The notes beneath the pieces are model-generated. The model was not told the DNA's origin. It made no database searches and saw only the letters and a program-made list of their open reading frames with translations. From a bacterium (GTDB lineage: Bacteria > Patescibacteriota > Minisyncoccia > Phycocordibacterales > UBA6899), in the NCBI GenBank assembly GCA_043742365.1, contig JAYTYM010000016.1, positions 1 to 36,353 of the forward strand: a stretch of 36,353 bases of DNA. Direction: 5' to 3'. Each line of letters starts with the position of its first letter. Within the stretch, counting starts at the first letter, position 1. This document shows positions 5,513 to 32,023 of the stretch, in pieces. A program made the translations under genes and the position numbers.

Positions 5513-6601
5513 ATGCCGAGCATTATGGAAAATAAAATCAAAAATACTGATAAGTATCAGGTGACGATAAAGACATTGCCGATGTCTCAAGTAGAGATAA
5601 CCGCCGTCATACCGAGTGAGGAATTTGACAAGACGAGGGGCGAAGCCATCAAGCATATTGGGAAAGACATAGAATTCCCTGGTTTTCGCAAAGGTCATGT
5701 GCCTGAAAAAATGCTCAACTCACGATTAGGTGAAGGGGTGATACTCGAAGAAATGGCAGAGATAGCGATAGGCCGTGTTTATGGAGAGATCATCACCGAG
5801 AGCAAGATCGACGCACTCGGCAGACCAGAGGTACGCATCACAAAGATCGCAGCGGGAAATCCGCTTGAGTTCACCCTCACTACAGCTGTGTTTCCAGAGG
5901 TAATACTTCCCGACTACAAAAAGATTTCCTCCGCGACAAAAATAACTGAGGAGGTGAGCGTGAGCGAAGAAGAGATCGATAAAACGATCGATGAGATCCG
6001 CAAGATGCGCGCGAAAAATGATGCGGCAAAATCAGACGAGCACACCCATGAAGCAGGTACGCAAGCGGAAGTCGAGCCTGAGCTTCCTCCTCTTGATGAT
6101 GCATTCGTGAAGCTACTCGGTGATTTTGAAAACGTTGATGCGTTCAAAGCGAAGCTCAAAGAGAATCTTTTTAAAGAAAAGGAGCGCGCCCTACGCGACA
6201 AAAAACGCGTCGCCATAATGGAGGGAATAATTTCTGCAACTTCAGTCGACTTACCTGAAATTATTGTTGAGCAAGAACTGCACCGCATGGAAGAAGAATT
6301 TACTCAAGAAATATCTCGCATGGGCATGACTCTTGATGCGTACATGAAAGCGGTTGGAAAAACCACACAAGATATGCACAAAGAGTGGCGCCCAGATGCG
6401 GAGAAGCGCGCAAAAGTACAACTTATTACTTCTCAGATTGCCGACAACGAAAAAATCACTCCTGACGAAGAGGAGCTCGCACGAGAAGCTGTGCGTTTGC
6501 ATGAACTTTATCCAGATGCCGACAAAGCGCGTGTGCGAGGCTATCTTGAGATGCTGCTCACAAACGAAAAGGTATTTAAGTTCCTTGAGTCCCAAGCGTA
6601 A
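5513..6601 (+). CDS. tig: Trigger factor, apparently lacking the FKBP-type PPIase domain
   Basis: N-terminal ribosome-binding domain with GFRKGHVP. The C-terminal chaperone arm is present. Only a short acidic linker (KSDEHTHEAGTQAEVEPELPPLDD) sits where the PPIase domain normally lies. Confidence 0.88.
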   Translation: MPSIMENKIKNTDKYQVTIKTLPMSQVEITAVIPSEEFDKTRGEAIKHIGKDIEFPGFRKGHVPEKMLNSRLGEGVILEEMAEIAIGRVYGEIITESKIDALGRPEVRITKIAAGNPLEFTLTTAVFPEVILPDYKKISSATKITEEVSVSEEEIDKTIDEIRKMRAKNDAAKSDEHTHEAGTQAEVEPELPPLDDAFVKLLGDFENVDAFKAKLKENLFKEKERALRDKKRVAIMEGIISATSVDLPEIIVEQELHRMEEEFTQEISRMGMTLDAYMKAVGKTTQDMHKEWRPDAEKRAKVQLITSQIADNEKITPDEEELAREAVRLHELYPDADKARVRGYLEMLLTNEKVFKFLESQA

Positions 6602-12090: not shown

Positions 12091-13614
12091 CTATTGGAGA
12101 CTTAGTTTATATATTGAAACGAGGGTTGAAGATCCTACTTCCTTTGAGGTTTCAAAATACACGATGCCAGGGGTTGATTTGTTTTCAATAAAATTCCTCA
12201 CATCATACTCACCACTTACTTTTTTCTCATCGAAAAAAAGACTACCTTTTGCGGTTGGCTGTGGCTTGTCCAAGGCGATGTATGCAAGTTTCCCATCAAT
12301 ACTTTTTAGGGAGAAAGGATTGATAATTCCAGCCAGCTCTTTCTCGTCATAAAAGATGTGATTTTCTCTGGTTGAACTATCGTATTTTGAATATTCAAGC
12401 TTCCCAGCAATTTCACTAAATTGTGGAGGACTATCCATCTTTGTCTTCGCGACTAACCGACTTCCAAGGTAAAGTCGTGCTTCTTTGGAAGAGTAATCTG
12501 TTGCGAGATAGGCTGGCTTCCCCGTGGCCTCTATCAGTTTTGCGATACTATTAGCAGACTGAATCATGTTTCCATCGAAGTAAAGTTGCTGAGAATCCTC
12601 TGTCGTTTTACCACTGATGTAAGCGAGCTTCCCAGAAATTTTCCTTATCTCAATATTATATGATCCGTCTGCTGTAATTTTTTTTCCATCTTCAAAAAGC
12701 GTTTGAGTTGTAGGATATTCGCTTCCTAAGTATCCGCCAATATCCTTTGGTGGGGTTTTATCAACAAATGTGAGAGTAGTGTAGGCGAGTTTACCATTAT
12801 TCTCCTCTAGATAATCCGGTATCTCATATGCAGAGATGACTTCTTTTCCATTGAAATAGAGCGTATCGGTATTCGCAGAAAAATCATGAATTATATATGA
12901 TAGTCCTTTGCTGGTCATTTTGAAATTCTTTATGTCTTGCCCAGTTACAATTTTCTTTCCACCAAAAAACAATGTCTTCTGTTTTGAAGCTTTATCGTAG
13001 ACGGTATAGGCGAGTTTCCCATCTATTTCTTTAACGTCAAACATGTCAGTCAAGCTTGTAACAGGAGCGGTTGCGAGCATCTCTGTACCATAATAAAGTG
13101 AGTGGGCTAAGGATTTTGTGTCATTACTGATATACATAAGTTTCCCAGCCAATTCCTGCATAATAAAAACATTTTCAGTAATCTTTGCCTCGTTCAAGAA
13201 TAATGAATTACTAAGATTGTGTTTTATGGTGTATGCAATGTCACCAGTTGAAAGGAGTGCGGTTTCACCGAGATAAGTACCATTACGATCATTTGATTCC
13301 GCGAGTGTTTTTGCAGCTTTTGCGGGTATGGTTAGTGTCTTTACTAAAATTGGCTCAGGCGATTGAGGCACTCCCACGACTGGAGTAGCTGTACTTGCGC
13401 TACTACGATTAGTTGAGGATGACACGGACGAACCCGAAAGACCTGGCACAACTGCCGTAGTCCCTGATGCTTCTGGTTTAAGAGGTGAGCTCGAAGCAAA
13501 ATTGTTTACGATAGTAGTCGGATCATTGGTTAGAAAATAGCCTCCTGCTATTACGAGTGCAACCATAGACGTTCCAGCAGCGACAATCCAAAGTACTAAT
13601 TTATTTTGTTCCAT
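12091..13614 (-). CDS. Membrane-anchored repeat protein (about 9 repeats of roughly 45 aa centred on G-K-L-A-Y)
   Basis: N-terminal TM segment and a Ser/Thr/Pro linker. Repeats then follow: DGKLAYTVYD, NGKLAYTTL, SGKLAYISG, TGKPAYLAT, AGKLEYSKYD, DGKLAYIALD, AGKLMYISND. Confidence 0.8.
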   Translation of the reverse strand: MEQNKLVLWIVAAGTSMVALVIAGGYFLTNDPTTIVNNFASSSPLKPEASGTTAVVPGLSGSSVSSSTNRSSASTATPVVGVPQSPEPILVKTLTIPAKAAKTLAESNDRNGTYLGETALLSTGDIAYTIKHNLSNSLFLNEAKITENVFIMQELAGKLMYISNDTKSLAHSLYYGTEMLATAPVTSLTDMFDVKEIDGKLAYTVYDKASKQKTLFFGGKKIVTGQDIKNFKMTSKGLSYIIHDFSANTDTLYFNGKEVISAYEIPDYLEENNGKLAYTTLTFVDKTPPKDIGGYLGSEYPTTQTLFEDGKKITADGSYNIEIRKISGKLAYISGKTTEDSQQLYFDGNMIQSANSIAKLIEATGKPAYLATDYSSKEARLYLGSRLVAKTKMDSPPQFSEIAGKLEYSKYDSSTRENHIFYDEKELAGIINPFSLKSIDGKLAYIALDKPQPTAKGSLFFDEKKVSGEYDVRNFIENKSTPGIVYFETSKEVGSSTLVSIYKLSLQ

Positions 13615-13682
13615 CCTAAAATCATATCACACTAAAACTGAAAAATCCCTTGGTTGAGGGAGTTCTTGGTGAAGACTGAAGT

Positions 13683-13797
13683 TGGTCAGTAGGGAGAATC
13701 GATTCCCCGGCGCAAGTGAAGCAGCGACCAAAATCACTTGAGCGTAGCGATTTGAGATTGGAAGTACTCTTGTGGTGTTCACTTGCTTCCCGCACCA
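13683..13797. ncRNA. tRNA-associated structured element A (short form of element B at 24246..24487); strand unresolved
   Basis: The 46-nt core at 13720-13765 matches 24358-24403 at 44/46. It is enclosed by the 9-bp helix 13712-13720 / 13778-13786, which covaries with copy B. A T-arm-like hairpin GGGGAAUCGAUUCUCCC lies at one end. Confidence 0.5.
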
Positions 13798-13840
13798 ATA
13801 TAAAAAAATCCTCTAAAGGATTTTTTTATATTGGTGCGGG
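13789..13840. terminator. Long perfect hairpin that incorporates the CCA end of the preceding tRNA-like element
   Basis: cccgcaccaatataaaaaaatcc-tctaaa-ggatttttttatattggtgcggg, 23-bp arms. Confidence 0.6.
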
Positions 13841-13989
13841 ACGGGAGAATCGAAGTCACGAATCACTAAATCTTTTTCGCTTTGCTCAAAAGCTTAAGTG
13901 TTCTCGACCCCGGCGCGCCACCTCACAAAGCTTCGGTATGCCTTGCGCCCAGTTCGATTCTCCGGAAGCTATGCTTCCTCCGTCCTCGC
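13832..13989 (-). ncRNA. tRNA-Gly-derived minihelix-like element with masked T-loop and about 100-nt insert; ends ..GUCCCGCACCA
   Basis: The 3' end UUCGAUU-CUCCC-GUCCCGC-A-CCA equals the T-loop, T-stem and acceptor of the adjacent tRNA-Gly(UCC). The 5' end GCG(A)GGAC mimics the acceptor 5' strand. The hairpin GGAAGC-AUA-GCUUCC follows. GGAGAAUCGAA (13953-13963 on plus) is the exact complement of UUCGAUUCUCC (13844-13854 on plus). Confidence 0.55.
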
Positions 13990-13990
13990 A

Positions 13991-14037
13991 TCGACAGCAA
14001 CAAAAAACGGCACAATGCCGTTTTTTGTTGCTGTCGA
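13991..14037. terminator. Perfect 22-bp hairpin between tRNA-Gly(UCC) and the minihelix-like element
   Basis: tcgacagcaacaaaaaacggca-caa-tgccgttttttgttgctgtcga. Confidence 0.6.
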
Positions 14038-14038
14038 G

Positions 14039-14109
14039 TGCGGGACGGGAGAATCGAACTCCCACCAAGAGTTTGGAAAACTCCTATTCTACCATTAAAC
14101 TAGTCCCGC
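14039..14109 (-). tRNA. tRNA-Gly (anticodon UCC), CCA not encoded
   Basis: GCGGGAC-UA-GUUU-AAUGGUA-GAAU-A-GGAGU-UUUCCAA-ACUCU-UGGU-GGGAG-UUCGAUU-CUCCC-GUCCCGC-A. All four stems pair. Confidence 0.93.
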
Positions 14110-14130
14110 ATTATTTTTGATTTACTAAAG

Positions 14131-14384
14131 TTCACCAAGAGTTTGGAAAGGCCTGTAGGCACTTCCAAATTTATACTTACTGCGGTCGTTAAATTTTTAG
14201 GTCGGTGCGCGAAATGGGAATTTCGGCACACTTCCAAATTTATACTCCTTACAGGAGCTGTCCACTTATTGGGTCTTTTTCAAAAGCCCTCAATGAGTCT
14301 TACGGTGCGGGTCCCGTACCCACACCTCACGCTCTGCTCCTTAAATTTTAGGTCGCTCCCATTCTACCCTTAAACTAGTCCCGC
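14131..14384 (-). ncRNA. Promoter-proximal composite: a perfect tRNA-Gly 5' half (14355-14384) fused to about 220 nt of structured repeat modules, with no T-arm
   Basis: GCGGGAC-UA-GUUU-AAGGGUA-GAAU-G-GGAGC is followed by two CGACCUAAAA..UAUAAAUUUGGAAGUG modules. There is an 18-nt exact direct repeat at 14160-14177 and 14229-14246. A copy of the window-start module sits at 14258-14348. A 17-nt duplicate of the tRNA-Gly(UCC) anticodon/variable region lies at 14133-14149 (= 14063-14079). Confidence 0.5.
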
Positions 14385-14418
14385 ACTGACGTTCGGCTCA
14401 AACTTGAACGTGCTTCGT

Positions 14419-14447
14419 ATCCTAACAAATTGACATCCGATAGGCAA
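14419..14447 (-). promoter_or_regulatory. Candidate promoter for the minus-strand tRNA-Gly(UCC) locus
   Basis: On the minus strand: TTGCCT, 17-nt spacer, TAGGAT, about 34 nt upstream of the tRNA-like 5' end. Confidence 0.4.
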
Positions 14448-14494
14448 CGGGTAAAAATGATGTAAGAAGTACGTTAAATACGAAAGGGGTTGGT

Positions 14495-15286
14495 GTGAGT
14501 AAACGAAACACAGATGCAGGCTTGGCTAAATCTGTTGATAAAAATGCAGCTGCTTTCCGTATCTGCGCGAAGATATTTGAGTTTTGGCGATTAACCGAAC
14601 TTGAGTCTTCTCGCATGCTTAGGCTCAGTTATGAAGAGTGGCAAAGTGCAAAATGTGCACGATCTTTACCAGCAAAAGCACTTGATGATCTTTCGCGCAT
14701 ACTTTGGATAGCAAGACTATGTACGGATCTTTACCCGCTCGACAAAGAACTCAGCGTGGCATGGCTGCGCAAAAATATCTTTGAAGAACCATTTTGGGGC
14801 ATGTCACCGCTTTATTTTATGCTCTCGAAAAGTGAGGAGCCGCTCGCGAGAACGCATCGCTTTCTTGCTCTGAAATTTGATACATGGGGCGCCCTACGTG
14901 ATGAGCGCAATGAGCTCGTGTACTTAAACGATGAGTTGCGCATCAGCGATGAGCCTATCGATACACTTATGTGCATGGCACTTCGTGTAGCGCGGTCCTG
15001 GCAACTTTCTGCACAAGAAGAGCGAGGACTTTTGGGAACAGAGTTTTCTTCAAATTCTGATTGTAGGGGGTTGCGCCCCGACACGTTGGTCAAAGCACGA
15101 ATGATAGTCCTTATTGATCTTGTTCTCTGGCACATATTTCATGATGGCAATAAAGTCGCCGCATGGGTACGAGCAAACAATATGCATCCCCTTTTTGAAG
15201 AAAAATCGCCACTTCAATTGCTGTGTTCAGGCGATGTAGGGGTTATGAAAGTCGTTTATGCATACCTCCGCAACATTTCACCGTAG
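14495..15286 (+). CDS. Tandem-duplicated Xre-like/DUF2384 (MbcA/ParS-type) antitoxin-domain protein
   Basis: Two similar halves. Each ends in the DUF2384-like signature: WLRKNIFEEPFWGMSPLYFML and WVRANNMHPLFEEKSPLQLLCSGDVGVMKVVYAYL. GTG start with AAGGGG upstream. Confidence 0.7.
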   Translation: MSKRNTDAGLAKSVDKNAAAFRICAKIFEFWRLTELESSRMLRLSYEEWQSAKCARSLPAKALDDLSRILWIARLCTDLYPLDKELSVAWLRKNIFEEPFWGMSPLYFMLSKSEEPLARTHRFLALKFDTWGALRDERNELVYLNDELRISDEPIDTLMCMALRVARSWQLSAQEERGLLGTEFSSNSDCRGLRPDTLVKARMIVLIDLVLWHIFHDGNKVAAWVRANNMHPLFEEKSPLQLLCSGDVGVMKVVYAYLRNISP

Positions 15287-24245: not shown

Positions 24246-24487
24246 TGGTCGGCGTGCAGGGAATCGAAGCTTACTGCTTCAGTATACCTTTGCGATTTAA
24301 TCGAAGCATAACTCCTCATAAATACCGCAAAGCTCTTCGATTCCCTGGCGTGAGCAAAGCAGCGACCAAAATCTCTTGAGCGTAGCGATTAGAGATTGGA
24401 AGTGACCAATTCTTCTTTTGCGCTCATCCGCTTAGAAGAATGGAAATACTCTCGTGGTGACTCTTGTGGTGTTTACTCACTCATCCC
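24246..24487 (-). ncRNA. tRNA-Pro-like CCA-ended structured element B (long form of element A)
   Basis: Ends CUUCGAUU-CCCUG-CACGCCG-A-CCA (C1:G72-type, Pro-like). A 13-bp perfect inverted repeat cagggaatcgaag (24257-24269) / cttcgattccctg (24335-24347) masks the T-loop. The 46-nt core at 24358-24403 is shared with element A. The helix 24350-24358 / 24472-24480 covaries with A. Confidence 0.55.
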
Positions 24488-26647: not shown

Positions 26648-26737
26648 TGGGGATAAAGCTGTGCACAGTGGGGATAAAGGACAACTCCCAATTTTGTAAA
26701 CTGTCCTTTATAAACAGTATCCACAGGTTTATCCACA
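26648..26737. promoter_or_regulatory. Cluster of four DnaA-box-like 9-mers
   Basis: TGGGGATAA at 26648-26656 and at 26669-26677 (1 mismatch each, one orientation). GTATCCACA at 26717-26725 (1 mismatch). TTATCCACA at 26729-26737 (perfect, opposite orientation). Confidence 0.5.
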
Positions 26738-26794
26738 TAATTGTGCATAACTCTGATTTAGGTGGCAAAAACTGCCATTTAGGTAGTTATTTAG

Positions 26795-26940
26795 TGGTGC
26801 GGGCAGATAGAATCGAACGCACAAGTTACTTAGTATTTTGACGCAAGAGCCTTAAAAATACTAAGTATCCGCGGTCCCACCTCGCTATCTTACAGAGCTT
26901 CGATATAGCTCCGGTCAGTTCGATTCTTCCGTCCCGACGC
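26795..26940 (-). ncRNA. tRNA-Gly-derived minihelix-like element (homolog of 13832..13989); ends ..UGCCCGCACCA
   Basis: The 3' end UUCGAUU-CUAUC-UGCCCGC-A-CCA has the acceptor of the adjacent tRNA-Gly(GCC). AGAAUCGAAC (26918-26927 on plus) complements GUUCGAUUCU (26809-26818 on plus). It shares GAAUCGAACUG, CGAAGCU.UGU.AG and GAGGUGG with the 13.9-kb copy, plus a homologous long hairpin with changed sequence. Confidence 0.55.
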
Positions 26941-26988
26941 AGGCACAAAACAAAAGAACAAGCATTCAGCTTGTTCTTTTGTGTGCCT
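26941..26988. terminator. Long hairpin between tRNA-Gly(GCC) and the minihelix-like element
   Basis: aggcacaaaacaaaagaacaagc-attca-gcttgttcttttgtgtgcct. Confidence 0.6.
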
Positions 26989-26989
26989 G

Positions 26990-27060
26990 TGCGGGCAGGG
27001 AGAATCGAACTCCCATCTTAACCTTGGCAAGGTCATGTTCTACCATTAAACCATGCCCGC
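26990..27060 (-). tRNA. tRNA-Gly (anticodon GCC), CCA not encoded
   Basis: GCGGGCA-UG-GUUU-AAUGGUA-GAAC-A-UGACC-UUGCCAA-GGUUA-AGAU-GGGAG-UUCGAUU-CUCCC-UGCCCGC-A. Confidence 0.93.
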
Positions 27061-27190
27061 AAATAATTTTTTCTTCAAAGACGGCTTTTCGATGGGAGAA
27101 CTTCCAATTCTTACTACTTTCGATCTTGGAATTTAGGTCGCCCCCACTTAGCTCAGCAAAGTTCATATTTTACCATCAAACCATGCCCGC
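27061..27190 (-). ncRNA. Promoter-proximal composite: tRNA-Gly 5' half mimic (27161-27190) plus a CGACCUAAA..UUGGAAGU module, with no T-arm
   Basis: GCGGGCA-UG-GUUU-GAUGGUA-AAAU-A-UGAAC is followed by about 60 nt and then GUUCU, which closes the anticodon-like stem. The module (27098-27140) is flanked by the helix UGGGGG / CUCCCA. Confidence 0.5.
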
Positions 27191-27378: not shown

Positions 27379-27513
27379 CAGCGAGTCTTCGAGTTGGCTC
27401 CCGAGGAGCTGAACTGCTTCAGCTCCGACAGGATTCGAAAGACTTTTCGTTGACGATTCCTAGAGTCCGAAAAGTACCTGCCGATGTAATCGGAGAATCC
27501 TGGCGGGAGCACA
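27379..27513 (+). ncRNA. tRNA-Arg-derived minihelix-like element bounded by a 19-nt direct repeat of the tRNA 3' end
   Basis: gaatcctggcgggagcaca occurs at 27362-27380 and 27495-27513. The insert carries GCUCCCG (27397-27403, complement of the acceptor 3' strand) and the hairpin GGAGCUGAA-CUGC-UUCAGCUCC. It also carries CAGGAUUCGAA (27429-27439), the exact complement of the T-loop/T-stem at 27359-27369. Confidence 0.55.
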
Positions 27514-27760: not shown

Positions 27761-29245
27761 ATGCCCCACTTCACCATTCCTGACGAGATAAAAAACATCA
27801 CCAACACCCTACAAAGTGCTGGATTTGAGGCGTACCTCGTTGGTGGGTGCGTGAGAGATCTTTTACGCGCAACTACTCCTAAAGACTGGGATGTGACGAC
27901 AAATGCGAATCCCGAACAGATAATATCCTTATTCACTAAAACATTTTATGAAAACGAATACGGAACAGTGGGTGTGGTTAATGAGTCAATATCTGAGGAC
28001 GAGACAGAAAAACTTTCATTGCGGGTAGTAGAAATTACGCCCTATAGAAAAGAAACTACTTATAGCAACTTTCGTCATCCCGATGAGGTGGTCTTTTCCG
28101 GAAATCTGCATGATGATCTTATGCGCCGCGACTTTACCATGAACGCCATCGCGTATGATGTGAAAAATAATGAGCTTGTTGACCCATACGACGGTCAGGG
28201 TGACATAAAACGTCACTTAATTCGCACTGTGGGAAAGCCTAAAGACCGTTTTAACGAAGATGCTCTGCGCATTATGCGCGCTGTTCGTTTTGGTGCTGAA
28301 CTTGGTTTTGTCATAGAAAAAGAGACCATGGACGCGATAGTCTTGTTCGCACCTCGACTTGAGACTATCGCGGGGGAGCGTCTACGGGATGAGTTCACGA
28401 AGATAATCATGTCAGAACGACCAATGGAAGGGATTATCATGCTCGAACGAACAAAAACCCTCAAATATATCCTGCCTGAGCTTGAACAAGGTCTTGCATG
28501 CGAGCAAAATGGCGACCACATTTATGATGTGTGGGAGCATAACCTCCGCGCACTGCAGCATTCTGCAGAACGAAAGTGGCCGCTGCATGTACGCATTGCA
28601 GCGCTCTTACATGACATTGGGAAGCCTGCGACTCGCAAATGGTCAGAAGAAAAACGCGACTGGACGTTCTATGGTCACGACGTTGTCGGCGGGAGAATGG
28701 CAACGAAGATCCTTGAGCGCCTGCGTTTTCCGAAGCAATTCATTCATGATGTCTCAACGCTCGTGCGCTATCATTTATTCTTTTCTGATATTGAAAAAAT
28801 AACTCTCTCAGCTGTTCGTCGCATTGTTTCTAATGTTGGACCTGAATTAGTATGGGACCTTATGAACGTGCGGGCGTGTGACCGTATTGGGATGGGCAGG
28901 CCAAAGGAAACTCCATATCGATTACGTAAATATCATTCAATGATTGAAGAGGCGATGCGAGACCCTATATCAGTCGGAATGATCAAGCTTGATGGTCAAA
29001 AAATAATGCAAATTACAAAAGAGAGTCCGAGCCCGAGAATCGGCTGGCTCTTGCATGCACTTTTTGAAGAGGTGCTCGAAAATCCCTTATTGAACAGCGA
29101 GGAATATTTGACCGCCCGCACTATAGAACTCGCAAAAGACGACCCTGAGGTACTAAAAAAACTCGGCGAGGCAGGGAAAGAAAAAAAGGATGAGAAAGAG
29201 CAGGGAGAGGTGAATGCAATTCGACAAAAATATCGTGTTAAATAA
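27761..29245 (+). CDS. cca: tRNA nucleotidyltransferase (CCA-adding enzyme family) with HD domain
   Basis: GGCVRDLLR..DWDV polymerase-beta head, RDFTMNA, and HD motif AALLHDIGK. Confidence 0.9.
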   Translation: MPHFTIPDEIKNITNTLQSAGFEAYLVGGCVRDLLRATTPKDWDVTTNANPEQIISLFTKTFYENEYGTVGVVNESISEDETEKLSLRVVEITPYRKETTYSNFRHPDEVVFSGNLHDDLMRRDFTMNAIAYDVKNNELVDPYDGQGDIKRHLIRTVGKPKDRFNEDALRIMRAVRFGAELGFVIEKETMDAIVLFAPRLETIAGERLRDEFTKIIMSERPMEGIIMLERTKTLKYILPELEQGLACEQNGDHIYDVWEHNLRALQHSAERKWPLHVRIAALLHDIGKPATRKWSEEKRDWTFYGHDVVGGRMATKILERLRFPKQFIHDVSTLVRYHLFFSDIEKITLSAVRRIVSNVGPELVWDLMNVRACDRIGMGRPKETPYRLRKYHSMIEEAMRDPISVGMIKLDGQKIMQITKESPSPRIGWLLHALFEEVLENPLLNSEEYLTARTIELAKDDPEVLKKLGEAGKEKKDEKEQGEVNAIRQKYRVK

Positions 29246-31084: not shown

Positions 31085-32023
31085 CTATTGCCGACGTTTG
31101 TCGTGAAACTGTTTATGAATGTCCCTGAGTTTGCTATCGGTCACATGTGTATAGATCTGTGTGGTTGCAATATTTGCATGTCCGAGCAATGCCTGCACCG
31201 AGCGCAGGTCAGCACCATTTTCAAGAAGGTCTGTGGCAAAGCTGTGGCGAATAACATGAGGAGTAACCTTTTTAGAAATACCTGCTTTAACTGCGTAATG
31301 TTTCACGAGGCGTTCCACAGATCGCGGCGTCAGTCGCAGATCTCCCTTTTTGGTCGCAAGAGTTTTTACTCCACCTCGACCGATCTGAATGAATAACGCA
31401 CTATCTACATCTGTCCTTTTGTTTAAGTACAGTTTGAGTGCGTTCTTGGCTGTCTCTGACAAAAAAACCACGCGTACTTTTTCGCCTTTTCCACGTACGG
31501 AAAATTGATCACGCGTCAGGTCAAGGTCGCGTGGAAGTCCACACAACTCTGAGACACGCAGTCCAGTTGAAAAGAAAAGCTCAAGTATGGCGCGGTCTCT
31601 AAGTGCAGGAAGCATCTCTCCTTGTGGGGCATTCAATAGTCGCGTCAGGTCTTGAGACGAAATAAGGTCGAGTTCTCGCTCTGATGCTTTCGCGAGCTCA
31701 ATACGTTCAGGCGACATGACCGAAACCCCTTCGCGCGAAAGATATTTGAGAAATGCGCGCAGGGCAATAAGGTAGTAATTCTGGGTGCGCTTCTTCAGCG
31801 TATCTGATGCAATGCCACGCTTAGAAACGCGTGCATTCTGGCGATTAAGCCACAGTCGATACTCACGCACTATTTCAAGAGTTATTTTCTCTGGGTCCGT
31901 GAGTTTCGTGTGTTCGATGAATCGAGAAAGATAGTGATCATAATTAATGACGGTTTTAAGGCTTCTGCCTTTTTCGATCTCGATGTATTCAAGAAAGCGT
32001 CTTTTCCATTCAATGAGATTCAT
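31085..32023 (-). CDS. Tyrosine site-specific recombinase, XerC/XerD-like
   Basis: N-terminal SAM-like domain. C-terminal catalytic motifs: LRVSEL (Arg), HVIRHSFAT, LLGHANIATTQIYTHV (Tyr). Confidence 0.9.
   Translation of the reverse strand: MNLIEWKRRFLEYIEIEKGRSLKTVINYDHYLSRFIEHTKLTDPEKITLEIVREYRLWLNRQNARVSKRGIASDTLKKRTQNYYLIALRAFLKYLSREGVSVMSPERIELAKASERELDLISSQDLTRLLNAPQGEMLPALRDRAILELFFSTGLRVSELCGLPRDLDLTRDQFSVRGKGEKVRVVFLSETAKNALKLYLNKRTDVDSALFIQIGRGGVKTLATKKGDLRLTPRSVERLVKHYAVKAGISKKVTPHVIRHSFATDLLENGADLRSVQALLGHANIATTQIYTHVTDSKLRDIHKQFHDKRRQ

Follow-up and report, generated by a model that had tools for sequence, protein, structure and literature searches.

A tRNA-half-like sequence upstream of a Patescibacteria tRNA-Gly(UCC) gene, read as a probable compound insertion scar of tRNA-associated structured repeats

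On a contig of a Patescibacteriota bacterium, an intact tRNA-Gly(UCC) gene is preceded by what looks like the 5' half of the same tRNA, which lies close to a promoter-like sequence and runs into duplicated modules. The locus raises the question whether this segment (14131-14384) contains a tRNA-half mimic, as the original prediction called it, or is the trace of something that happened to the gene. We analysed it within the window, by which we mean the whole stretch of 36,353 nucleotides, and against loci outside the window, which carry numbers preceded by L. We think it probable, although far from certain, that 14131-14384 is a compound insertion scar of tRNA-associated structured repeat elements and not a working tRNA-half mimic.

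The tRNA-Gly(UCC) locus and its relatives

All features of 14131-14384 lie on the minus strand, 5' of the intact tRNA gene. In the direction of that strand, and with R1 denoting a covariance model built on the core, the locus reads as follows:

14419-14427, minus: extended -10-like TGTTAGGAT, presumed promoter of the tRNA transcription unit; kept in L001, L003 (TGCTAGGAT), L004 and L007
14356-14384, minus: 5' part of tRNA-Gly(UCC), positions 1-29 with two substitutions, read as the displaced original gene front (from the repeat and from the alignment of empty and filled sites)
14341-14355, minus: 5' arm of module F4 (CGACCTAAAATTTAA)
14245-14329, minus: three-way-junction core, compact "type A" (R1 62.9 bits, E about 1e-18; aligned with 15 other copies; covariation)
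14326-14329, minus: UGAG of the core
14304-14326, minus: helix Hx of the core
14297-14303, minus: junction GUAAGAC of the core
about 14265-14296, minus: helix P2 of the core
14258-14264, minus: junction UGGACAG of the core
14245-14257, minus: helix P3 of the core, CUCC-UGUAA-GGAG
14229-14246, minus: 3' arm of module F4 (AGUAUAAAUUUGGAAGUG), one copy of an 18-nt exact repeat
about 14205-14231, minus: hairpin GUGCCGAAAUUCCCAUUUCGCGCAC between both F modules (predicted fold; homologous spacer in L001)
14160-14204, minus: module F3 (CGACC-hairpin-UUUGGAAGUG)
14133-14159, minus: linker CCUACAGGCC and 17-nt tRNA copy (positions about 32-48), pairing with UUUGGAAG of F3
14110-14132, minus: A/T-rich spacer ending AAUAAU, directly 5' of the intact tRNA; equivalents in L001, L003 and L095
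14038-14109, minus: intact tRNA-Gly(UCC), read as the working gene, CCA not encoded

Much of what the original prediction had described is borne out by this layout. A tRNA-Gly fragment is joined to duplicated modules downstream of a conserved promoter-like TGnTAGGAT, and the 18-nt repeat at 14160-14177 and 14229-14246 is exact (two matches occurred in 0 of 100 shuffles). The predicted RNA fold of 14110-14385 on the minus strand (-78.2 kcal/mol, z = -2.27) contains the proposed hairpin GUGC-CGAAAU-UCCC-AUUUCG-C-GCAC at about 14205-14231, as well as a UUUGGAAG/CUUUCCAAA hairpin. The proposed copy of the anticodon loop and its complement are also there: 14133-14149 repeats 14063-14079, that is, the anticodon loop, the 3' strand of the anticodon stem and the variable region, exactly over 17 nt, and UUGGAA is complementary to UUCCAA. 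The tRNA 5' half, which had been called perfect, is present at 14356-14385, but only 28 of its 30 positions are identical (93%). Other elements of the prediction have to be given up. GGAGC and GCUCC, which were thought to pair, both exist, but GCUCC is the 5' strand of the conserved, covarying hairpin P3, and the two strings do not form an anticodon stem. A codon-anticodon-type function of the leader finds no support in anything tested here. As for the promoter, we take TGTTAGGAT from its sequence to be that of the tRNA transcription unit; a simple sigma-70 scan did not call it at 14419-14427.

A highly structured insert that interrupts a tRNA copy brings to mind a self-splicing intron, and a few short motifs that had been likened to those of group I introns are indeed present. 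Nevertheless, it is extremely improbable that the insert is a degenerate group I (IC3-like) or other self-splicing intron in a tRNA-Gly pseudogene. Rfam Intron_gpI has no match in the region at the gathering threshold, neither it nor any other ribozyme model matches 13500-14700 even at E<=10, and a three-way junction of about 85-100 nt is far smaller than any group I intron. Moreover, the interrupted copy has no T arm, as had been noted correctly, and no acceptor 3' strand, and no 3' exon completes it: ARAGORN and Rfam find the intact downstream tRNA only. When the flanks of 100 copies were joined in silico and searched with ARAGORN, no interrupted tRNA lacking an intact neighbour was found, only the trivial products of joining to the tRNA next door. 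Bacterial group I introns that sit in the anticodon loops of tRNAs share with the insert that they are structured and interrupt tRNA sequence; the insert differs from them by having no catalytic core, by sitting mostly at the T arm, by its much smaller size and by the intact tRNA that always lies alongside. Searches of the region and of six clean metagenome copies against Rfam, at gathering and permissive thresholds, returned only tRNAs and chance microRNA-like hairpins. Small self-cleaving ribozymes (hammerhead, twister, pistol, hatchet, HDV-like and others) were considered and set aside, as there was no Rfam match and the order of the junction strands differs from that of the hammerhead.

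Comparison with relatives explains the half tRNA better. The phosphoglucomutase (PGM) gene that adjoins the locus has its closest relatives in metagenome-assembled genomes (MAGs) of Patescibacteria (CPR), some of which are labelled Candidatus Lloydbacteria, and L001, L003, L004 and L007 all have a tRNA-Gly(UCC) and a phosphoglucomutase gene in divergent arrangement. The orthologous tRNA sites differ in the presence or absence of an insertion. In L004 and L007, the TGnTAGGAT promoter is directly followed by an intact tRNA-Gly(UCC) without any insert; in the window, L001 and L003, it is followed by the 5' part of the tRNA, inserted DNA and the intact tRNA. L003 is the cleanest case, with the promoter region, tRNA positions 1-49, an insert of about 100 nt, TTCGATTC and complement, an A/T-rich spacer and the complete tRNA; a perfect 49-nt direct repeat (tRNA positions 1-49) brackets the core. 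L001, the closest relative, shares the layout of L003, but its stranded copy additionally carries a single F module of about 45 nt in the anticodon loop; its core still lies at the T arm. Relative to L001 the window is rearranged further, as the core lies inside one of two F modules and the T-arm remnant is lost. Because L004 and L007 have the same promoter directly before the tRNA, we read the apparent mimic as the original front of the gene, left by its promoter, and the intact downstream tRNA as the working copy.

A family of structured cores at tRNA genes

The core at 14245-14329 is not peculiar to this locus. Its compact upstream form measures about 85-100 nt and makes a closed three-way junction, and the alignment of compact copies shows conserved bases UGAG / GCAAGAC / AAAGGUGUACAG / loop CUGUAAG. 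Pairing reaches 99% in helix P3, where three of the four pairs have 47-60 double changes and the fourth has 5, and 85% in P2; helix Hx takes at least nine different paired sequences among 16 compact copies. The observed covariation score was reached by none of 500 shuffles. The fold energy of P2 is better for the tRNA-sense strand in 67 copies and for the other strand in 31 (mean -1.8 kcal/mol), a statistic that is overstated because the sequences are related; it modestly favours a structure at the RNA level. G-U pairs are not in excess in the model alignment (24, against 40 A-C mismatches). Together, the strong conservation of junction bases and the better folding of the sense strand suggest an RNA with a function and not inert junk, and thus weigh against the account of a plain scar.

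Among the matches listed, R1 finds 117 copies in 85 sequences, and a scan of metagenome contigs for the core motif gave at least 120 stretches. Within the window, R1 also detects copies after tRNA-Pro, after tRNA-Arg and at the window start. The copies are associated with tRNA genes: among the 84 motif matches listed, 44 sit 81-327 nt (median 133) downstream of a tRNA on the same strand, 6 lie just upstream of one, 14 are too near a contig end to judge and 20 have no called tRNA nearby; 23 anticodon types are involved among the matches listed. The orientation relative to the tRNA is constant across units, and the core usually has a second copy of the tRNA 3' end on one side and an inverted complement of that end on the other. 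Contigs of relatives end at the units or show gaps there. The core family is widespread and structured. It is apparently undescribed, as the searchable literature yielded no account of such elements and Rfam 15 no family. Twelve hits of the core motif to viral contigs were dismissed as chance; the best two lie inside a DNA methyltransferase gene.

Downstream units have a regular order. The tRNA, usually without encoded CCA, is followed by a terminator-like hairpin, the complement of the acceptor 3' strand, hairpin H1, the T stem 5' strand with AAUCGAA (the complement of the T loop), the core, and a second tRNA 3' end that starts from GAUUC. The direct repeat begins at GATTC in the T loop, stops 1-6 nt past the discriminator and usually measures 17-26 nt. 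Ten cases have an acceptor stem with a wobble or a mismatch, and in 9 of them the upstream arm is exactly complementary to the tRNA 3' strand and not a copy of the 5' strand. One standalone copy, L126, is closed by a 17-bp stem that is unrelated to any tRNA. At orthologous loci no clean empty site for a downstream-type unit was found, with possible remnants in L003.

The window holds several such units beyond the upstream insert:

13975-14053: long palindrome spanning the tRNA 3' end and a terminator-like hairpin
13858-13990, minus: downstream unit of tRNA-Gly(UCC), with inverted repeats and the same layout as at tRNA-Gly(GCC)
13980-13990, minus: acceptor 3'-strand complement of that unit
13964-13979, minus: small hairpin of that unit
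13952-13963, minus: T stem and T loop complement GGAGAAUCGAAC of that unit, then its divergent body
13832-13857, minus: distal tRNA 3'-end copy (T loop to acceptor) with CCA
13692-13841, minus: perfect 25-bp hairpin (13788-13841), followed by what remains of a second downstream unit (by comparison with L001), with module F1 (13724-13776) in the H1 hairpin loop, GGGGAAUCGA retained at 13699-13708 and the core deleted
24260-24414, minus: tRNA-Pro downstream unit, core 24260-24341, module F2 at about 24363-24414 in the H1 loop
26795-27190, minus: tRNA-Gly(GCC) locus, with pseudo-tRNA 5' part 27141-27190, module F5 27100-27140, intact tRNA 26989-27060 and downstream unit 26795-26945
27380-27500, plus: tRNA-Arg downstream unit, core 27434-27500
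1-110, minus: further compact core, cut by the window start (R1)

The divergent body of the unit at 13858-13990 is not detected by R1. Inverted T-arm copies are present downstream of tRNA-Gly(UCC); these, the tRNA 3'-end copy with CCA and the appendages at other tRNAs are features that the original prediction had not included.

The F modules form a second, smaller group. They have the form ACTTCC-hairpin-TTT(T/A)GGTCG, measure about 45 nt and occur in both orientations. A strict version of the pattern has four copies in the window, where none is expected by chance, and a fifth module (F4) holds the core in its loop; L001 and L116 are the only loci outside the window in which F modules were seen. 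The modules contain UUGGAA, which is complementary to UUCCAA of the Gly-UCC anticodon loop, and some copies also carry ACUCUUG(G)UGG, which corresponds to the 3' anticodon stem plus variable region. Because the main family carries a complement of the T loop (AAUCGAA against UUCGAUU), we read the UUGGAA pairing as meaningful, by analogy probably as a mark of origin or targeting. The idea that F modules are miniature cores found no support, as R1 does not detect them even with filters off. Judged by sequence, one may conjecture that their ends (CGACC... / ...GGAAGU) are akin to GCAAGACC... / ...AAAGGUGUAC.

Signs of duplication and movement are not confined to the orthologous tRNA-Gly(UCC) site. 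L114, L132 and L136 contain identical tandem units, in L119 one core is nested within the P2 loop of another, and L004 has an insertion in a P3 loop. Further insertions lie in H1 loops (tRNA-Pro unit of the window, distal Gly unit, L116) and in anticodon loops (L001, L116). The core after the tRNA-Arg of the window and the core after the tRNA-Gly of L007 are 90% identical, while their hosts' PGM proteins share only 62% identity, and cores at different tRNAs of one genome are about 91% identical despite differing flanks.

These observations bear on the idea that no mobile element is involved, and that everything stems from local events alone, namely duplication, unequal crossing-over and template switching at the hairpins of tRNAs and at terminators. 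Such events would account for the identical tandem units and for the long near-perfect palindromes that are centred on terminator loops and include the tRNA 3' end. They do not account for the same core and junction motifs beside 23 tRNA species (among the matches listed) on many unrelated contigs, or for cores that remain so similar within one genome between flanks that differ. We consider this idea unlikely, and the distribution of the family already largely refutes it.

Insertion, integration or by-product RNA

Together, our data suggest a model in which the locus began as a TGnTAGGAT promoter directly before tRNA-Gly(UCC). A small non-coding three-way-junction element of about 85-100 nt would have entered the gene at the T-arm side, bringing with it a second tRNA 5' part and an A/T-rich spacer, so that an intact tRNA was rebuilt downstream. 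The original 5' part would thereby have been stranded beside the promoter, where it was free to decay. The stranded copy may then have gained F modules of about 45 nt at its anticodon loop, each carrying the complement of the loop, and a later rearrangement would have placed the core inside one F module, with loss of the T-arm remnant. We infer that transcription from TGTTAGGAT reads through the relic of about 275 nt, that RNase P frees the tRNA, and that the CCA-adding enzyme encoded in the window (27761-29245) finishes it. Since the tRNA would be kept functional, the insertion would be tolerated by the host. More generally, the family would move or duplicate among tRNA genes via hairpin loops, duplicating whatever part of a gene the insertion would sever, and a spacer may come with the upstream form of the elements and a terminator with the downstream form.

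The gene neighbourhoods offer no candidate machinery for such movement. Proteins encoded in the window include RNase Y, ClpP, NusA, trigger factor, CheA/CheB, PilB, PNPase, the CCA-adding enzyme and a Xer-like recombinase; Pfam and NCBIfam searches of the window neighbours found no mobility gene beside the locus, the flanking genes being unannotated or housekeeping. When ORFs of 90 aa or more that lie up to 3 kb from metagenome copies were clustered, the families that emerged were all housekeeping ones, with no transposase, integrase, reverse transcriptase or nuclease.

The Xer-like tyrosine recombinase gene (31085-32023), the only recombinase gene of the window, invites the thought that the tRNA fragments are att-site scars left by tyrosine-recombinase integration and decay. 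Crossover would have occurred in the T loop or the anticodon loop, the incoming element would have brought a replacement tRNA part, and the leftovers would be mini-elements that can be mobilised in cis. The direct repeats do span the distance from a stem-flanked loop (T or anticodon) to the gene end, and a repeat from a loop flanked by symmetric stems to the gene end is reportedly the classic sublocation pattern of tRNA-targeting integrases. Integrative elements of this kind also leave the tRNA intact, as is the case here. However, the elements measure only 100-190 nt (0.1-0.2 kb), without cargo, and the metagenome loci examined show no integrase linked to them. In the upstream type, the core, which is conserved and has the look of an RNA, is placed between the 5' strand of the T stem and the T loop, and not past the crossover. 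The replacement arms match every different tRNA, to which they are tailored and which a fixed attP cannot do. The recombinase of the window, finally, looks like a housekeeping XerC/D and is 17 kb away from 14131-14384. Taken together, we regard att-site scars as very unlikely.

The layout of the downstream units has a close counterpart in Escherichia coli. The tyrT-tyrV-rttR locus contains 178-nt units, each of which closes on the 3' end of tRNA-Tyr, starting in the T loop (AATCC...) and finishing with CCA, and holds an inverted T-arm/acceptor copy. RtT repeats are not known outside the tyrT locus of enterobacteria. RtT repeats (rttR; RF00391) and the CPR units are both about 170-185 nt long, directly follow a tRNA in the same orientation, are often in tandem, finish on a second tRNA 3' end that begins within the T loop (with AATCC... 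in E. coli and with GATTC... in CPR) and contain an inverted T-arm/acceptor copy. A unit in the orientation of the tRNA that ends in a duplicate of its 3'-terminal 19 nt or so is found in the downstream units of the window and in 44 of the 84 metagenome copies listed; 14131-14384 itself is an upstream variant of this layout. There are also clear differences. We see no homology, as the Rfam RtT model misses the CPR units and R1 scores less than 5 bits on the E. coli locus, and the CPR family has a conserved three-way-junction core, is found with many kinds of tRNA in many genomes, and also occurs upstream of and inside tRNA copies.

By analogy with RtT, the units may be functional by-product RNAs of tRNA operons, co-transcribed with the tRNA, released by RNase P and 3'-processing enzymes and then acting as small RNAs. 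Their ends would imitate the acceptor/T helix of a tRNA, their role might lie for example in stress or translation control, and 14131-14384 would be the leader version; a mobile origin would be compatible with this. The match in architecture to tyrT-tyrV-rttR, the invariant junction bases and covarying helices, the better fold of the tRNA-sense strand and the constant orientation all speak for such a role. Most downstream units, on the other hand, begin after a terminator-like hairpin with a U tract, so that co-transcription would require read-through. Their presence and copy number differ among close relatives, many copies are truncated, nested or interrupted, and the copy at 14131-14384 is rearranged relative to L001. 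The RtT RNA itself has no established function (bioRxiv 10.1101/2024.07.17.603846). We see by-product RNAs as a possible explanation but not a likely one.

A more far-reaching idea takes the conserved three-way-junction core for a mobile RNA of a new kind, small and either catalytic or RNA-guided. Via complementary arms, such an RNA would enter hairpin loops that are exposed in structured RNAs or in the genes for them, and it would be cut or joined at P3|GAUUC. Its targets would be the loops of the T and anticodon arms as well as the P2, P3 and H1 loops of the element itself, recognised through AAUCGAA against UUCGAUU and UUGGAA against UUCCAA, and the mobile form might be a rod-like and possibly circular RNA of about 170-185 nt that is copied back into DNA. 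If this RNA is indeed circular, a junction of ...GUAAGNNNN joined to GAUUC... would be present. We hold this idea to be rather doubtful.

Meaning for the family and its hosts

For insertion of repeat elements, which we continue to prefer as the explanation of 14131-14384, comparable small palindromic repeats that insert into protein and RNA genes are the Rickettsia palindromic elements, MITEs and the REP, BOX and Correia-type repeats. These are likewise short, non-coding, multi-copy and hairpin-forming, nest in one another and occur inside structured sequences. Unlike them, the CPR elements do not have constant terminal inverted repeats; their closing arms vary and copy the local tRNA or other local sequence. 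They are bordered by repeats of 17-49 nt and not by a short target-site duplication, their association with the T loop is strict and orientation-specific, and their junction bases are conserved like those of a functional RNA. By analogy, the elements appear to work like RtT-type repeats and like integrative elements that restore their tRNA, although we would class them under neither.

Read as an insertion, the apparent tRNA-half mimic becomes a legible insertion history. The scar itself is ordinary and of modest interest; the family behind it is widespread. The units break assemblies and can mislead the annotation of tRNAs in metagenome-assembled genomes. The conserved core is open to tests of cleavage, ligation and protein binding, and the 45-year-old puzzle of E. 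coli tyrT and its RtT repeats gains many comparable examples that have such a core. Should the core turn out to be a mobile RNA, the RtT repeats would be a distant and degenerate example of the same biology. The locus exposes a large family that lives on the tRNA genes of the ultra-small CPR/Patescibacteria without destroying them.

Cores and other features around the insertion scar

The compact three-way junction (helices Hx, P2 and P3) that forms the core of the insertion scar upstream of tRNA-Gly(UCC) recurs within the window. Two further cores and three genes of the window are:
1-110, (-) strand: another compact three-way-junction core; it and the core in the scar fall into one subfamily
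14495-15286, (+) strand: 263-aa ORF, flanked by the promoter region of the tRNA on one side and the phosphoglucomutase gene on the other
27380-27500, (+) strand: unit after tRNA-Arg, containing a core
27761-29245, (+) strand: CCA-adding enzyme gene, ~260 nt beyond the tRNA-Arg unit
31085-32023, (-) strand: tyrosine recombinase of 312 aa, with Phage_integrase and SAM-like N domains

The second core lies directly downstream of a PilB-like gene, is cut by the window start, and has the ...AGUGGACAG variant in common with the core in the scar. The core after tRNA-Arg and the L007 core that follows tRNA-Gly are 90% identical.

The 263-aa ORF gave a weak Xre/MbcA/ParS antitoxin C-terminal match and nothing else; an NCBIfam search returned no match. 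Among relatives with the orthologous tRNA-Gly(UCC)/phosphoglucomutase locus, L003 apparently has a counterpart, the spacing in L001 is compatible with one, and L004 and L007 have none. The tyrosine recombinase, which looks like XerC/D, is 17 kb away from the scar; no other recombinase was seen in the window.

DnaA-box-like 9-mers (TTATCCACA, at most one mismatch) occur 22 times in the whole window, against 7.6 expected. Five of them fall within ~100 nt at 26648-26750, in a cluster that adjoins the tRNA-Gly(GCC) locus and is probably the replication origin.

Stand-alone and nested copies, and the E. coli repeats

Some metagenomic copies have no tRNA nearby (L126 5370-5520; also L106, L129, L148 and L169). 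In stand-alone copies of the L126 type, a 17-bp stem of unrelated sequence closes the core and is followed by a U tract. Cores can also be interrupted: at L119 2480-2690 the P2 loop of one core houses another complete core, and at L004 7900-7975 the P3 loop houses a 69-nt palindromic insert flanked by GTAAG repeats.

In the E. coli tyrT/rttR region (L213; NC_000913 1286000-1287600), every 178-nt repeat carries a 22-nt inverted copy of the tRNA-Tyr T arm/acceptor, 86% complementary, on top of the 3'-end duplicate that was known before. A fourth, diverged unit makes up the tyrT-tyrV spacer.

Terminators and contig ends

The tRNA terminators of the window lineage are long near-perfect palindromes (window 13788-13841; L001 1360-1420; L004 1-50), the stems of which incorporate the tRNA's own acceptor 3' strand, plus CCA if encoded. 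Contigs of relatives stop exactly at tRNA-Gly or barely within the downstream unit (L004 1-121, L005 1-72, L006 1-72), and L005 has a 100-N gap (5860-5960) where the tRNA-Pro unit is expected. The tRNA-linked repeats evidently break short-read assemblies.

The units downstream of tRNA-Gly

The units downstream of the two tRNA-Gly genes in the window (13858-13990 and 26820-26945, (-) strand) share a different, shorter body, which reads …AUCGAAGCUYUGURAG…GAGGUGG… and was not detected at either place by the search with the core model. The shared body, missed by this model, suggests that these units represent a second subfamily.
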